Positions 58,723 to 64,000 of a stretch of 64,000 nt of DNA are shown here, one piece after another. The notes under the pieces were generated by a model. That model did no database searches and was not told the DNA's origin. It saw only the letters and a list, made by a program, of their open reading frames with translations. The stretch lies in the NCBI RefSeq assembly GCF_054482595.1, contig NZ_CM137008.1. One strand, written 5' to 3'. Positions within the stretch are counted from its first letter, which is position 1; each line of letters starts with the position of its first letter. Position numbers and translations under genes: made by a program.

Positions 58723-59718
58723 GTGACCGTGAGAGCACTACTGACCCCTGAAATTGCCCCGCGTATGGGGATCGTATTGTTCAGACCAGGTTCAGAACTG
58801 ATGCCCCTGTTTATGCAGGGGCGTGTCCTGCTGGAGCCTGAGCCGGAACGTTATTCATCTTTCGCCAGTGGTGCCGTTCCGGCAGCATCACAACCGCTGG
58901 CGGATGATCCTGCCGTTCGGGCCGTGTTCCGCAATGAGGCAGTGATCCGTCGTGCTGGTGGCGTGGAATGTCTTGAAAGCTGGTTACTTCGTGAAAAAGG
59001 CTGTCAGTGGCCTCACTCCGACTGGCACAGCGAAAACATGACCACAACGCGCCATGCGCCGGGCGCAATCCGTCTGTGCTGGCACTGCGATAACCAGTTG
59101 CGTGACCAGTTCACGGAACGGCTGGAATCAATGGCAACGGATAACTGTGCCCGCTGGGTGTTATCTGTTGTGCGCCGTGATCTCGGTTTTGATGATAGTC
59201 ACGTTGTGACAATGCCGGAACTGTGCTGGTGGCTGGTTCGTAATGACCTGGCGGATGCCTTACCGGAAAGTGCAGCCCGTAAGGCACTGAGATTACCGAA
59301 GCCTGTTGTGCCGTCTGTCACCCGGGAAAGTGACCTTGTTCCTTCGGTTCCTGCCACCAGCATCATCCAGGATAAGGCGAAAAAGGTGCTGGCGCTGAAA
59401 GTGGATCCGGAGTCACCGGAGTCTTTTATGTTACGCCCAAAACGTCGCCGCTGGGTTAATGAAAAGTACACGCGCTGGGTTAAGACACAGCCGTGTGCAT
59501 GTTGTGGAAAGCCCGCTGATGATCCCCACCACCTGATAGGCCATGGTCAGGGTGGAATGGGGACAAAAGCGCATGACCTCTTTGTGTTGCCTTTGTGCAG
59601 AAAGCATCACGACGAGCTGCATGCGGATACCGTGGCATTTGAAGAGATGTATGGCTCCCAGCTGGAGCTGATATTTCGTTTTATCGATCGTGCGCTGGCA
59701 ATTGGTGTGCTGGCCTGA
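58723..59718 (+). CDS. DUF968-family phage protein (YdfU-like)
   Basis: 331 aa; C-terminal Cys/His-rich CACCGKPADDPHHLIGHGQGGMGTKAHDLFVLPLCRKHHDELH. Confidence 0.7.
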   Translation: MTVRALLTPEIAPRMGIVLFRPGSELMPLFMQGRVLLEPEPERYSSFASGAVPAASQPLADDPAVRAVFRNEAVIRRAGGVECLESWLLREKGCQWPHSDWHSENMTTTRHAPGAIRLCWHCDNQLRDQFTERLESMATDNCARWVLSVVRRDLGFDDSHVVTMPELCWWLVRNDLADALPESAARKALRLPKPVVPSVTRESDLVPSVPATSIIQDKAKKVLALKVDPESPESFMLRPKRRRWVNEKYTRWVKTQPCACCGKPADDPHHLIGHGQGGMGTKAHDLFVLPLCRKHHDELHADTVAFEEMYGSQLELIFRFIDRALAIGVLA

Positions 59719-59720
59719 TT

Positions 59721-60083
59721 TTGTGGAGAAAGTTGATGCGTGATATGTATGAAGTAATGGATCGTTGGGGAGCTTGGGCTGCTTCAGACAATAGCGGAGT
59801 GGACTGGCAACCGGTAGCCGCTGGCTTCAAGGGACTTTTACCTCATGGCAAAAAGTCCCGGATTCAGTGTGATGATGACGAAGGCATTATGATAGACAGT
59901 TGTGTGGCTCGGTTGCGTAAATATAGGCCTGAAGAATATGAGCTAATCATTGCTCACTTTGTTATCGGTATCTCATTACGCACTATTGCGAAGAAGAGAA
60001 AATGCTCTGATGGGACTATAAGAAAAAAGTTGCAAGCTGCATTGGGATTTATTGATGCAGTTATATATATAATACATGGGTAA
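59721..60083 (+). CDS. Late-gene antiterminator Q (QuuD-type)
   Basis: 120 aa; DRWGAWAA...AAGFKGLL...KSR.QCDDD...CSDG... closely parallels QuuD-family Q proteins. Confidence 0.85.
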   Translation: MWRKLMRDMYEVMDRWGAWAASDNSGVDWQPVAAGFKGLLPHGKKSRIQCDDDEGIMIDSCVARLRKYRPEEYELIIAHFVIGISLRTIAKKRKCSDGTIRKKLQAALGFIDAVIYIIHG

Positions 60084-60090
60084 TTTATTA

Positions 60091-60109
60091 GACGGCCATA
60101 TTGGCCGTC
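60091..60109. terminator. Palindromic hairpin GACGGCC-ATATT-GGCCGTC between convergent Q and the antisense cassette
   Basis: Perfect 7-bp inverted repeat overlapping the cassette stop codon; no strong U-run. Confidence 0.4.
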
Positions 60110-61295
60110 AGCTAAATAAATATGTAATAGCATAAGGTGTAAGTAAAAAGTAGAATCTAAATGTAAGATATAAGCCACATAAAACTATAATTCCTAATGA
60201 GGCAAAAACAACTTTCTGAACAAGCAATCTTGTGGTTAAACTATCAAATGTATCCTTTATATCTTCGTAAATAGCCTTGAAGTTATATTCTGCTTGTTGT
60301 TTTTTATGATTTAACTCATCATTTATTGCTGTTAAAGTTTGCCATTGATTAAATAGAACAAATATAATCATAATAGTGAAGAACAATGCACCCAACACTA
60401 CAGCTGTGTTTATTAATGCTTGACTATCCCAACCATTAGCCTGCTTCATTTGAGTCGCAACGATAATTGTTGCGACGGGGATACCTAATATCTGATTTTG
60501 TATGTCACTGAATACTTTATGTATTTTCCCCATCTCTTCTATTTTGGCTACTCGTAACTGATCTAGTATTTTCTCGTAAGAAAAACCAGAAACGAATACT
60601 TTGTATCCTTTTTGATAACTTTCATAAAGTTGTCCTAAATCCCTTAACATGAAGGAAAAAGAGGTTTCTTTAGTTTTAGATTCACATGATGATTTTATAC
60701 TACTTGCTAAAATAGTAAGTTTTTGATCTTTATGCGTATCTTCTGCAAAGTTTGCGATCAAATTATGAATCAGATCTCCATTAACATTCATAAGATCATC
60801 GCTAGAATAATTTACTGGAATTTTTAGTACGTTGGATTCGACGAATACCAATTCAAAATTTGTTTCATCTAAATAAGCAGAACAATCTTTGAATAAAGTA
60901 ATTAAGCTCAAAACATCTCTGTACTTGGATATAATAGCAGGCGACTTTTTATCCCTGTTGTGATAATTAAGTTCGATTATAAAGAAGTTACTGGCTTCCT
61001 TTATCCTATTTTTAGGATTTTTTAAATACTCATTAAAAGAGAAATGTAGCTGCCCCAATCGTAATTTGGGGGGGGTTATATGTAAGGTTATAGTTTGGCC
61101 TAACTCAATGTTGCCAGATTCAAGGGTGATGCCAAAATCATGGGGATTCTCTGTGATATCGTTGATGATGTCACAGAGCTCCTCGTTTGAAAGAATGAGT
61201 GATGCTTCAGATAGGGTACCTGCAAATGTAGCGGCCTTGTAAATAGTCACTAAGTCTTTGAAGGTTCTCTGGTTTTTACTGCTCATCCTCTTCAC
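60108..61295 (-). CDS. Hypothetical 395-aa protein with two C-terminal TM helices; downstream gene of antisense two-gene moron
   Basis: Clean AT-rich ORF; hydrophobic segments ALINTAVVLGALFFTIMIIFVLF and VVFASLGIIVLCGLYLTFRFYFLL; overlaps upstream gene by 20 nt. Confidence 0.75.
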   Translation of the reverse strand: MKRMSSKNQRTFKDLVTIYKAATFAGTLSEASLILSNEELCDIINDITENPHDFGITLESGNIELGQTITLHITPPKLRLGQLHFSFNEYLKNPKNRIKEASNFFIIELNYHNRDKKSPAIISKYRDVLSLITLFKDCSAYLDETNFELVFVESNVLKIPVNYSSDDLMNVNGDLIHNLIANFAEDTHKDQKLTILASSIKSSCESKTKETSFSFMLRDLGQLYESYQKGYKVFVSGFSYEKILDQLRVAKIEEMGKIHKVFSDIQNQILGIPVATIIVATQMKQANGWDSQALINTAVVLGALFFTIMIIFVLFNQWQTLTAINDELNHKKQQAEYNFKAIYEDIKDTFDSLTTRLLVQKVVFASLGIIVLCGLYLTFRFYFLLTPYAITYLFS

Positions 61296-62310
61296 CTAAT
61301 TCTGATAAAATCTCTGATCTTAGCGTATCCGGAATCTCGGTAAGTATCAATTTATCGTTTTCTGAATCATAAAGAACGCTGCCATCATGCAAGGCCGCAC
61401 GCTCGAATTTCAGAGACCAATGTTTGGACTTTCCTTTGAAACTAACAAGCCCACGTATAACGTTGCCATCAGGCACGAACCCATCAGAGAACTCCAGATC
61501 GTCATTGGTTAACTTTTCAACTAACAACTCAGGAGCAGTTGGCCATATCTCGTTTGCAAAAATTTGAGTGTCGAAAGTTTCACCAGAACGATTTAAATTT
61601 TTTAATTTTTCATGAGCCTTATTTAGGAACTCTTCACGTGCCTCTGGTTCAAAACCTCTTTCAGTAGCAAATTCTAAAAGTGCATTCCGTAATTTTGTTG
61701 TTTCTTGTTTGGCAATTAGAATATCGTTGCAACCTAAAAACTTTTTGAAATAACCTGCTACTGAATTTTGCCCCTTTAGAAAGCTAATATATCTCTCTTT
61801 GCCATTCTGGCGCCCAGTTAAGTCAATTCGTCCCGCTACTCGAAGTTTAGCAATGTCTAGATATTCACTTTCTTGAATTTCAAAATCGTGGACTGAAGAG
61901 CCAACTGCTGAAGTTAGGATTGCAACCATCAAATAATGATTTCCATTTACCTCATTATGGGCAATTATTACATAACCACCAGTAGACATTGATTCATCAT
62001 CGGCTCTGGCTTTTAAATGATTGATCATTCGGATACTAGTATCATAAAAACTATGTGTTTTATTTACGAAATAATCATCAACGATATTACCCATAGGGTA
62101 ACTATCGCGGTCATCTTCAAATTTCCCATATCCTTTACCTGCTCTCCCAGAGTACCTTTCAGTAAGTGCGTTAGAGAGGTCTTTTGATGCTTGCTGAACA
62201 GGTTTTTCTGAAGGACAAGGAATAATGGTGGCTAACCCCTGTTGTTCCTTGTTCATAATGTGAACAATAAACTTATGAGTGATATTAGTGGGGGTCGCTG
62301 ATGCAGTCAT
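61276..62310 (-). CDS. Divergent NdpA/YejK-family (NA37) nucleoid-associated-like protein, prophage-encoded
   Basis: 344 aa; blocks GGYVIIAHNEV..YLMVAIL, GRIDLTGRQNGKERYISFLKGQ..VAGYFKKFLG parallel host YejK ([51 protein letters not shown]); RBS AGGA upstream. Confidence 0.75.
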   Translation of the reverse strand: MTASATPTNITHKFIVHIMNKEQQGLATIIPCPSEKPVQQASKDLSNALTERYSGRAGKGYGKFEDDRDSYPMGNIVDDYFVNKTHSFYDTSIRMINHLKARADDESMSTGGYVIIAHNEVNGNHYLMVAILTSAVGSSVHDFEIQESEYLDIAKLRVAGRIDLTGRQNGKERYISFLKGQNSVAGYFKKFLGCNDILIAKQETTKLRNALLEFATERGFEPEAREEFLNKAHEKLKNLNRSGETFDTQIFANEIWPTAPELLVEKLTNDDLEFSDGFVPDGNVIRGLVSFKGKSKHWSLKFERAALHDGSVLYDSENDKLILTEIPDTLRSEILSELGEEDEQ

Positions 62311-62426
62311 AACAACATCCTTTTAATGGTTTTGAACAATTGGTGTTGATAATACTTCAAAAAATACTAATGCGTACGCAAAAAATACAGTACTCTGTTA
62401 AGAGTGGTTACTTCGCCACACAGCTT

Positions 62427-62456
62427 AAACCCGCCGTTGAGCGGGTTTTGTCGTTT
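62427..62456 (+). terminator. tR'-like Rho-independent terminator upstream of lysis genes
   Basis: AACCCGC-CGTTGA-GCGGGTT hairpin followed by TTGTCGTTT. Confidence 0.6.
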
Positions 62457-62600
62457 CTGGGGCTGGGGATTCGTTGGTCCTGGTCTATTCCGCAGTTATC
62501 CATTGGTTCGGCTTCTTTGACGTTTCCGCTTCTAATTTGCTGTACATGATGTTCCCTCAATTTGCACCTGCTGTATCAGCGAGGTGAGAGATAACTACAA

Positions 62601-62927
62601 ATGCCTCATAACCCAAATACCTGGCTGGAGTTGGTCCAGAGCTGGTGGCGTGGAGACACACCACTGGGCGCAGTGATTATGTCGATCGTTATGGCTGGCT
62701 TGCGCATTGCCTATTTTGGCGGTGGTGGTGGCTGGAAGCGAAAAACGCTTGAGATTTTACTCTGTGGCGCTCTGACGCTGACATTTGCATCCGCGCTTGA
62801 GTATGTCGGATGGCCTAAATCACTATCTGTTGCCATTGGTGGTGGGGTGGGGCTGATCGGTGTCGATGCTATTCGTGGGGCTGCAATGCGAGTAATCGGT
62901 AACAAGTTTGGTGGCTCTAAGGAGTAA
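62601..62927 (+). CDS. Holin (class I, S-like)
   Basis: 108 aa, three hydrophobic segments, Gly-rich, immediately upstream of endolysin. Confidence 0.8.
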   Translation: MPHNPNTWLELVQSWWRGDTPLGAVIMSIVMAGLRIAYFGGGGGWKRKTLEILLCGALTLTFASALEYVGWPKSLSVAIGGGVGLIGVDAIRGAAMRVIGNKFGGSKE

Positions 62928-62930
62928 TTT

Positions 62931-63407
62931 ATGCAGGTACTAAATTCCCAGCGTAAAGCTTTTCTCGATATGTTGGCGTGGTCAGAAGGAACGGATAACG
63001 GGCGACAGCCAACCCGCAATCACGGCTACGACGTTATTGTAGGTGGTGAGCTATTCACGGATTACTCCGATCATCCTCGCAAACTTGTCACGCTAAACCC
63101 GCAACTTAAATCAACCGCAGCTGGACGTTACCAGCTTCTTTCCCGTTGGTGGGATGCCTACCGCAAGCAGCTTGGCCTGAAAGACTTCTCTCCGAAAAAC
63201 CAGGACGCTGTTGCACTGCAGCAGATTAAGGAGCGTGGCGCTTTACCGATGATTGATCGCGGTGATATCCGTCAGGCTATCGACCGTTGCAGCAATATCT
63301 GGGCTTCACTGCCGGGCGCTGGTTATGGCCAGTTCGAGCATAAGGCTGACAGCCTGATTGCAAAATTCAAAGAAGCAGGCGGAACGGTCAGAGAGATTGA
63401 GGTATGA
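62931..63407 (+). CDS. R: Endolysin R (lambda-type lytic transglycosylase)
   Basis: 158 aa near-identical to lambda R as recalled ([48 protein letters not shown]...). Confidence 0.95.
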
Positions 63408-63865
63408 GCAGATTAACCGCGATTATCTCCGCTCTGCTCATCTGCATCATCGTCTGCATGTCATTGGCTGTTAATCATTATCGTGATAACGCCATTACCT
63501 ACAAAGCCCAGCGCGACAAAAATGCCAGAGAACTGAAGCTGGCGAACGCGGCAATTACTGACATGCAGGTGCGCCAACGTGATGTCGCTGCGCTCGATGC
63601 AAAATACACGAAGGAGTTAGCTGATGCGAAAGCTGAAAATGATGCTCTGCGTGATGATGTTGCCGCTGGTCGTCGTCGGTTGCACATCAAAGCAGTCTGT
63701 CAGTCAGTGCGTGAAGCCACCACCGCCTCCGGCATGGATAATGCAGCCTCCCCCCGACTGGCAGACACCGCTGAACGGGATTATTTCACTCTCAGAGAGA
63801 GGCTGATCACTATGCAAAAACAACTGGAAGGAACCCAGAAGTATATTAATGAGCAGTGCAGATAG
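63404..63865 (+). CDS. Rz: i-spanin Rz
   Basis: 153 aa near-identical to lambda Rz; N-terminal TM. Confidence 0.95.
63624..63806 (+). CDS. Rz1: o-spanin Rz1 (embedded in Rz, +1 frame)
   Basis: 60 aa lipoprotein [22 protein letters not shown]... with PPPPP tract, nested in Rz. Confidence 0.9.
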
Positions 63866-64000
63866 AGCTGCCCATATCGATGGGCAACTCATGCAATTAT
63901 TGTGAGCAATACACCCGCGCTTCCAGCGGAGTATAAATGCCTAAAGTAATAAAACCGAGCAATCCATTTACGAATGTTTGCTGGGTTTCTGTTTTAACAA

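Follow-up and report, generated by a model that had tools for sequence, protein, structure and literature searches.

The stretch analysed here, called the window below, comprises 64,000 nucleotides (nt) of contig NZ_CM137008.1 (RefSeq assembly GCF_054482595.1) and carries a lambdoid Escherichia coli prophage with a late antiterminator Q of the PF06530 (Q21-related) family. Between the Q gene and the lysis genes, two genes point in the opposite direction, encoding a YejK-like nucleoid-associated protein (NAP) and a protein with C-terminal membrane segments, and to the right of this cassette an A-tract, a palindrome, a -10 hexamer, a leader and a tR'-like terminator follow each other within 62356-62456 (Table 1). 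A first-pass annotation, made from the letters alone, had taken the gene pair for a moron insulated from late transcription and had suggested that the late promoter and its qut site are located after it. With a probability of roughly 80%, we consider 62356-62456 to be a complete late control unit, i.e. a Q-dependent pR'-tR' right of the cassette, and the cassette itself to be of a defence type and exchanged in a hotspot. The placement of the unit, in which we agree with the first-pass annotation, follows from the comparison with empty sites, from the covariation of Q with its putative Q-binding element (QBE), from the geometry of phage 21 and from a transcription start mapped in the homologous locus of E. 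coli K-12; Q binding and antitermination at the unit are what we infer from these comparisons. Just to the right of the Q stop there is no QBE, and the DNA is specific to the cassette.

Table 1. Features of the Q-to-lysis segment of the window (positions count from the first letter of the window; strand and remarks where available)
Feature	Position	Strand	Remarks
Q antiterminator gene	59736..60083	+	Pfam PF06530, E=1.9e-44; PHROG 79, Q-like
Cassette-specific DNA	60061..62355		G+C about 0.35, flanks about 0.50-0.55; replaced by unrelated DNA in relatives; composition profile and alignments of both junctions
Perfect hairpin GACGGCCAtatTGGCCGTC	60091..60109		8-bp stem, 6 G:C pairs, 3-nt loop
Cassette gene 2, 395 amino acids	60108..61295	-	PHROG 5023 (unknown function), E=1e-79
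Cassette gene 1, YejK-like NAP (NA37), 344 amino acids	61276..62310	-	PF04245, E=8.3e-69, full length; PHROG 3767
Candidate cassette promoter	62349..62376	-	-35 TACGCA (62376..62371), 16-nt spacer, -10 TATTAT (62354..62349); relaxed hexamer scan
A-tract	62359..62364	+	-44..-39 of the late start; invariant in five-phage alignment and in nearly all variants
Palindrome GCGTACGC, putative QBE	62372..62379		at -31..-24 relative to the late start; an A-run extends to 62385
Late promoter -10 TACTCT (TAnnnT), putative	62391..62396	+	A2/T6 kept in 36/36 distinct upstream sequences
Near-invariant 39-mer GTTAAGAGTGGTTACTTCGCCACACAGCTTAAACCCGCC	62397..62435	+	start region, leader, left arm of tR'
Predicted late start, A (+/-1 nt)	62403	+	from Cappable-seq of the DLP12 homologue in K-12
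tR'-like intrinsic terminator	62427..62458	+	stem 62427-62448, 8 pairs, 5 G:C, loop of 6; then TGTCGTTTCT
First late genes	62601..63865	+	list of open reading frames; RefSeq names in identical E. coli genomes
Holin	62601-62927	+	PF05106, E=5.7e-25
Endolysin	62931-63407	+	
Rz	63404-63865	+	Rz1 embedded at 63624-63806
DUF968/HNH gene	58723-59718		directly 5' of Q

Comparing the segment with phage genomes by BLAST, we found only its flanks to be widely common, namely Q on the left and the sequence from about 62356 onward on the right. Phage 1720a-02 represents the empty site, in which the right-hand element comes directly after the Q stop and the end of the terminator about 90 nt later, while in SfII, Stx2a_1447 and cdtI the slot between Q and the QBE is occupied by two antisense genes, a different pair in each phage. 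Two samples of loci were collected. An exact search for the 39-mer gave 124 loci for analysis, among them 106 with a PF06530 Q upstream. The distance to Q is 27-44 nt in 27 of these and 858-3011 nt in 79; in the remaining 18 loci, the sequence available upstream is shorter than 2.5 kb. The second sample (80 loci, Q 80-94% identical to that of the window) was obtained with the Q protein alone, which removes the ascertainment bias towards the 39-mer, and here TAACGCGTACGCA lies downstream of Q in 77 loci, 76 of them with an insert of 0.87-3.75 kb. Taken together, the samples contain 155 filled sites (loci L005-L207), whose inserts fall into 39 families unrelated to each other, with a G+C content of 0.29-0.43 and a coding capacity of 14256 amino acids on the minus strand against 346 on the plus strand. 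When the largest proteins of 20 other insert families were submitted to PADLOC, those of eight families matched defence models (KwaB of Kiwa with E=8e-143, NsnA/PD-T4-2, PD-Lambda-5, PDC-S42, PDC-S60, PDC-M53 and an AAA ATPase) and those of twelve matched none; Menshen-like genes are also found among the slot cargo. By these comparisons, the gap between Q and the QBE is a hotspot of cassette exchange and of defence genes. A literature search retrieved no description of a Q-to-pR' defence hotspot, by which its absence from the literature is not proven.

The left border of the exchanged DNA lies inside the Q gene. Homology to other group-A Q genes (those of the same type) is lost near 60060, with about eight codons left to the stop, and according to the Q alignments each cassette family supplies its own C-terminal tail; as these last codons vary with the cassette family, cassette exchange rewrites the C-terminus of Q. 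In the window Q ends with ...GFIDAVIYIIHG (60050-60083), in Stx2a_1447 with ...GFIDGVLRMV. The reading frame is open from TTG 59721 to the TAA at 60081-60083, and the start likely is the ATG at 59736, as annotated in phage 1720a-02. The protein has 115-120 amino acids and distantly matches the solved Q21 structures 6P18/6JNX (E=1.2e-3, residues 13-91). This border also bears on a different arrangement, in which pR' and qut would lie immediately downstream of Q or in the 3' end of its gene, late transcripts would run antisense through the cassette and the conserved right-hand element would amount to no more than a terminator or the gene of a small RNA. The late promoter does follow Q directly in lambda, in phage 21 and in 1720a-02, and in K-12 a plus-strand Cappable-seq start is located within quuD, the Q gene of the DLP12 prophage (U00096.2 573406, L126 684; 157 nt before the quuD stop, score 9.3). 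We nevertheless hold such a position of the late promoter to be very improbable: the DNA from about 60060 onward is cassette-specific and different in every insert family, the palindrome specific for the Q type is missing by the Q stop of the window and is invariably found on the right side of the insert, the Q stop has a stable hairpin behind it, and the K-12 data contain no plus-strand start between the quuD stop and 575093.

The late control unit right of the cassette is composed in the same order in every variant upstream of the 39-mer: A-tract, perfect palindrome, A/T run and a TAnnnT hexamer abutting GTTAAGAG. Conservation across cassette families begins on the left with the A-tract, which may have the role of an UP element. 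The palindrome GCGTACGC, of which the window has a single copy near Q, belongs to one of four types, and the palindrome type tracks the type of the Q helix-turn-helix in 54 distinct Q/site combinations with no exception and with unrelated cassettes in between. Thus, GCGTACGC is paired with the Q sequence ...SLRTIAKKRKCSDGTIRK..., GCGGTCCGC with ...SKRKxAKxRKKDEKLIRIE... and with the 1720a-02 variant of that sequence, GGAATTCC with ...SARNIAKRQGISHTQILK... and TTTACGTACGTAAA with ...TFMSLASKHCCSDGYIGK...; the two Q groups that have CSDGxIxKKLQ in common also have the palindrome core CGTACG in common. As it covaries with the Q type across a recombination hotspot, which is the strongest argument available, the palindrome is likely the site to which Q binds. 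The QBE variants of the window and of loci L001, L006, L028 and L126 are all perfect palindromes of these four types (GCGTACGC, GCGGTCCGC, GGAATTCC, TTTACGTACGTAAA). In this respect the unit differs from that of phage 21, whose QBE consists of two direct 8-bp repeats, and the palindromic form suggests a symmetric Q dimer in the subfamily of short Q proteins.

Upstream of the 39-mer, the TAnnnT hexamer just before GTTAAG is the only register with an invariant A2 and T6, and it is retained in the divergent variants found through Q as well. Registers at offsets -11, -14, -16 and -17 from GTTAAG keep A2/T6 in 31-69% of the sequences, in comparison to 100% at -6, and the start site of K-12 is compatible with -6 only. 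It should be noted that the AAGAGT register inside the 39-mer is constant merely because the search pattern had fixed the 39-mer. The start in question comes from the DLP12 prophage of K-12, whose layout is quuD, the antisense nmpC, the element (one mismatch in 39) and essD. There, Cappable-seq detected a primary start on the plus strand at U00096.2 576452 (enrichment 4.8, relative read score 1.7), the only one on this strand between 576081 and 576907 (PMC4782308 supplement). Converted between genome versions, it falls on an A located 7 nt past the TAnnnT hexamer, to which A62403 corresponds in the window, and TAAGAG/AAGAGT then occupies -4..+3. A start 1 nt before TAAGAG, considered in analogy to the sigma-dependent pause element (SDPE) TAAGCT of phage 21, was dropped on account of the register conservation and the K-12 start. 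A strong Cappable-seq start (576081, L126 3359; score 90) lies just upstream of the nmpC start codon and is directed toward the QBE and essD. For the DLP12 locus, the 3' end and SMRT-Cappable supplements contain no entries, and the curated record of phage 434B, which has a DLP12-type segment, carries no late promoter annotation. DLP12 (qsr') resembles the window in its Q family, the slot, the antisense extra gene, the hairpins after Q and the leader upstream of the holin gene; it differs in its cargo, which is the porin gene nmpC instead of a NAP and a membrane protein, in its Q type and palindrome (TTTACGTACGTAAA) and in a better -35 (TTTACG, 16-nt spacer).

Downstream of the predicted start, the leader of about 50 nt ends in the terminator, the leader and the tR' hairpin having a folding energy of -19.6 kcal/mol (z=-2.1). 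That a tR'-like terminator stands between the start of the cassette and the holin gene, as the first-pass annotation had noted, was reproduced by the terminator scan, which returned the stem at 62427-62448 together with its T-run, a feature beyond chance expectation. Relatives ascertained through Q have other stems (CCCGCC/GGCGGG, CCCTGCC/GGCGGGG, CCTCGC/GCGGGG and others), and most of them nevertheless retain a G+C hairpin and its T-run at 76-94 nt past the start of the QBE. Exact copies of the 39-mer occur in at least 120 viral contigs, and its natural variants were found in the Q-ascertained sample only. The 39-mer is identical in phages whose Q proteins are about 50% identical and whose QBEs and downstream modules differ, the modules being of the holin type or consisting of a small open reading frame of the Shiga toxin (Stx) phage type and a methylase. 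Such identity could stem from a function as a recombination linker or from a conserved RNA of about 50 nt in the lysogen. Searching 59600-63000 against Rfam at a permissive threshold gave chance-level matches only, none of them at the leader, and a literal search of the literature for the leader sequence gave no match. In locus L169 the NA37 cassette family of the window stands beside a leader and terminator variant clearly different from that of the window; cassette and leader therefore reassort independently.

The same geometry is annotated in phage 21 (record OL657228), where 91 nt separate the Q stop from the end of tR', the -35 lies 7 nt past the stop, the QBE lies in the promoter spacer, transcription starts 41 nt past the Q stop and a 50-nt leader ends in tR'. 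The window shares with this unit (Q21, QBE, pR', SDPE, tR') the Q superfamily, a QBE inside the promoter or just upstream of it, an intrinsic terminator at the end of a leader of about 50 nt with the lysis genes next and, in its empty-site relative, the span of about 90 nt between the Q stop and the end of the terminator. Unlike in phage 21, the unit of the window is 2.3 kb away from Q with an antisense cassette in between, its -35 is poor where phage 21 has TTGACA, and no TAAGCT-like pause element follows the mapped start. Transferred to the window, transcription from pR', a weak sigma-70 promoter with the -10 TACTCT and a start at about A62403, would halt at tR' as long as Q is missing; after induction, Q made from the early operon would bind the palindrome and be loaded onto RNA polymerase near the promoter, and the Q-loaded polymerase would pass tR' into holin, endolysin and Rz. 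The AT-rich cassette of 2.3 kb has been swapped into a recombination hotspot bounded by the last Q codons and by the A-tract and QBE, and its messenger RNA would start from a promoter arranged back-to-back with pR' and end at the hairpin overlapping the stop codon of gene 2.

This hairpin, in which the first-pass annotation had recognised a perfect palindrome overlapping the cassette stop just past Q, is present as described and exceeds chance expectation. It begins 8 nt past the Q stop, includes the cassette stop TGA (complement of 60108-60110) and folds with -15.2 kcal/mol on the plus strand (z=-4.1) and -16.3 on the minus strand (z=-5.0), a stability reached by none of 200 shuffles. Hairpins of such quality number 10 distinct ones in the window against about 1.4 expected from first-order Markov simulations, i.e. 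about sevenfold. Its stem is unchanged in the copy of the cassette in Klebsiella phage Kp4865-4 (76% identical overall), the flanks of which diverge. Most other cassette families carry a perfect hairpin of their own, of 8-16 bp and 1-11 nt past the Q stop, and in many families it is preceded by an A-run and followed by a T-run, the pattern of a bidirectional intrinsic terminator; K-12 has several such hairpins downstream of quuD. The hairpin of the window is the same kind of feature minus the U-run. Judged by these likenesses, it is likely an element that forms the 3' end of the cassette mRNA or terminates it, and likely also a barrier to unmodified rightward read-through from Q, which it would stop. 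One could instead see in it a site of recombination or insertion of the cassette, similar to attC or to repetitive extragenic palindromes (REP), rather than a transcription signal, as a hairpin particular to the cassette family stands at the equivalent place in each of them and the one of the window lacks the U-run. We think there is very little to be said for this, as the A-runs and T-runs flank the hairpins of many families in the manner of bidirectional terminators, the hairpin sequences are mutually unrelated, the homology break lies about 30 nt further left, inside Q, and the exchange is accounted for by the conserved flanks, Q and the QBE.

Taking the hairpin as a transcription signal of the cassette, the insulation proposed by the first-pass annotation has to be seen in two parts. 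The cassette lies upstream of pR' and points away from it, and late transcription, as predicted here, therefore never enters it; position and opposite orientation thus provide the insulation. The hairpin, which had been credited with part of it, cannot be what excludes late transcription from the cassette, since this transcription is initiated 2.3 kb further right and proceeds away from it; the action of the hairpin would be confined to early transcripts coming rightward from Q and to the 3' end of the cassette mRNA.

The first gene of the cassette begins with an ATG (complement of 62308-62310), preceded at 8 nt by a strong AAGGA Shine-Dalgarno sequence, and overlaps the second gene by 20 nt according to the list of open reading frames. 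The 395-amino acid product of the latter has a soluble N-terminal part and, by hydropathy, membrane segments at about 291-321 and 353-387, and is a candidate effector. Pfam contains no match for this protein, and PADLOC (2023 models) none for either of the two cassette proteins. PANGU type II is an abortive-infection system made of the NAP Pag2A and the membrane effector Pag2B, and the NAP of PANGU senses genome degradation induced by phages (2026 preprint, bioRxiv 10.64898/2026.04.06.716658). The cassette shares with it the two-gene operon, in which the gene of a YejK-like NAP comes first and that of a protein with transmembrane segments at its C-terminus second; it differs in that Pag2B has an acidic DNA-mimic (DMK) N-terminal domain, whereas the counterpart in the cassette is not acidic by composition. 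Likened in this way by gene architecture, the cassette probably acts in defence by abortive infection, as a system similar to PANGU type II.

Expression of the cassette from a promoter of its own is proposed with a candidate whose -35 TACGCA falls inside the palindromic QBE and from which transcription is predicted to start near 62342. Between the window and the Klebsiella copy, the block 62346-62385 shows 100% identity and the adjoining DNA diverges, and this conservation supports the presence of a signal there, with the strand not specified. The plus-strand hexamer GATAAT (62348-62353), which is the minus-strand TATTAT shifted by 1 nt, is part of this block fully shared by E. coli and Klebsiella. 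Another -35 of the cassette, TTGAAG, was dismissed, as no -10 partner is found at 15-19 nt. Expression in the lysogen appears plausible, given the usual cargo of the slot (defence systems; a porin in DLP12).

Several observations weigh against the reading as a whole. The K-12 start is weak (score 1.7 at a threshold of 1.5) and comes from a homologue rather than from the prophage of the window. Its conversion uses an offset between the K-12 genome versions which we take to be +777, and an error of 1 nt would move the start to the adjacent G. The late promoter of the window matches the consensus poorly, at 3/6 positions in the -10 and 2-3/6 in the best -35, with neither scan reporting it, and a search for an SDPE found no A2/T6 hexamer at +1..+15 of the mapped start. 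The papers of Rueggeberg on DLP12 are said to describe a 'Q-like transcription factor' and an RpoE-dependent promoter, which the primers of the DLP12 reporter place about 350 nt upstream of the element. No canonical T-run follows the stem of the hairpin at 60091-60109 on the 3' side of either strand, and the terminator scan was silent there. The cassette promoter is a weak match to the consensus, the standard promoter scan returning nothing between 62311 and 62600. Finally, residues 1-265 of the 395-amino acid protein have a pI of 6.2 with 35 acidic and 32 basic residues.

Part of these points can be accommodated if the conserved element is not a promoter of its own kind. It would then be a Q-responsive terminator or operator fed by a promoter elsewhere, for instance in cassette-borne DNA like the RpoE-dependent promoter of DLP12, or Q would be a classical activator, and promoter-proximal loading at a pause would not take place. 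The weak core promoter and the missing pause element are in line with this, as are the term 'Q-like transcription factor' of the DLP12 papers, the inferred position of the DLP12 promoter, near which the strong Cappable-seq start at 576081 is found, and the conservation of the plus-strand GATAAT in the Klebsiella copy. This explanation is more serious than a late promoter directly behind Q, yet we consider it unlikely. The upstream DNA differs with each cassette family and thus offers no general promoter, while TAnnnT beside the QBE is universal; the primary start in K-12 lies 7 nt past this very hexamer; in phages with an empty site only about 40 nt are available between the Q stop and the start; and the geometry fits that of phage 21, in which loading is promoter-proximal. 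A late control unit with a promoter of its own, at 62356-62456, therefore remains our preferred reading.

Combining the parts, it can be envisaged that a symmetric Q dimer binds the palindromic QBE where it overlaps the -35 regions of both pR' and the cassette promoter and thereby turns the late genes on and the cassette off, that the Q-QBE interval is a dedicated exchange site and that the leader serves as a small RNA of the lysogen. We regard this combination as doubtful. If it were true, a single Q binding event would switch on the late genes and switch off an abortive-infection cassette, avoiding self-killing at induction, and defence cassettes would be exchanged in the Q-to-QBE gap by way of its homologous borders; of the 39 families in this gap, most have no match among known systems.

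The predicted late start would apply to a very common group of prophages in E. coli, Shigella and Klebsiella, to which Stx, Cdt and serotype-converting phages belong. Since it lies beyond the cassette, the cargo of the slot is expected to be outside Q control, unlike stx. A simple rule for finding cargo can be derived: DNA between a PF06530 Q and the combination of palindrome, TAnnnT and leader should contain candidate genes for expression in lysogens, and the 12 of 20 families without a match to defence models are candidates for new systems. The four natural Q/QBE specificity pairs should further be useful for studying how short Q proteins recognise DNA.

Several aspects of this organisation are well established, namely the antisense placement of an accessory gene between Q and the lysis genes (nmpC in DLP12), self-contained morons and defence hotspots in prophages. 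In phage PA-2 the lc porin gene reportedly occupies the equivalent slot, and the lambdoid phages HK97 and HK022 reportedly carry morons (Juhala, Hendrix and colleagues), extra genes between conserved phage genes. Like those morons, the cassette lies between conserved genes, is missing in close syntenic relatives (1720a-02 and 26 further loci), deviates in base composition (G+C 0.29-0.43 across the cassette and 0.35 for the insert overall, against 0.50-0.58 in the flanks, according to the composition profile) and has its own terminator-like hairpin and a putative promoter; unlike them, it sits in a recurrent slot with at least 39 alternative cargos and has its left junction within the coding sequence of Q. 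The hotspots of P2-like prophages and P4-like satellites (PMC9122126) are likewise fixed sites with conserved flanks and many alternative anti-phage systems, but belong to other phage groups and positions, and the hotspot described here splits a regulator from its DNA target. What goes beyond the literature we found is the location of the late promoter and QBE by covariation, the palindromic QBE, a junction that falls within Q, the extent of the cassette repertoire and the near-invariant leader.

Stx phages also have accessory genes between Q and the lysis genes, and produce a short constitutive pR'-tR' transcript in lysogens (PMC7547250). Their stx genes are located downstream of pR' and tR', in sense orientation and under Q control, whereas the cassette of the window is upstream of pR' and antisense. 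StxS, the small RNA element of these phages, is associated with a clade of Q proteins of 144 amino acids and a pR'-tR' spacing of 258 nt and is processed to 74 nt (PMC7547250); an identity of the leader with StxS was rejected, as Q is of the shorter PF06530 kind here, the leader has about 50 nt and Rfam gives no match.

E. coli strain 50EVA has a prophage segment with 100% identity to 59700-63900, and Q, cassette and lysis genes are arranged as in the window in 15 of 5426 complete E. coli genomes. A DUF968/HNH-like gene precedes Q not only in the window, but also in SfII, cdtI, Stx2a_1447, 1720a-02 and most of the E. coli relatives; in record KF030445 this gene is mislabelled as a second 'antitermination protein Q'.

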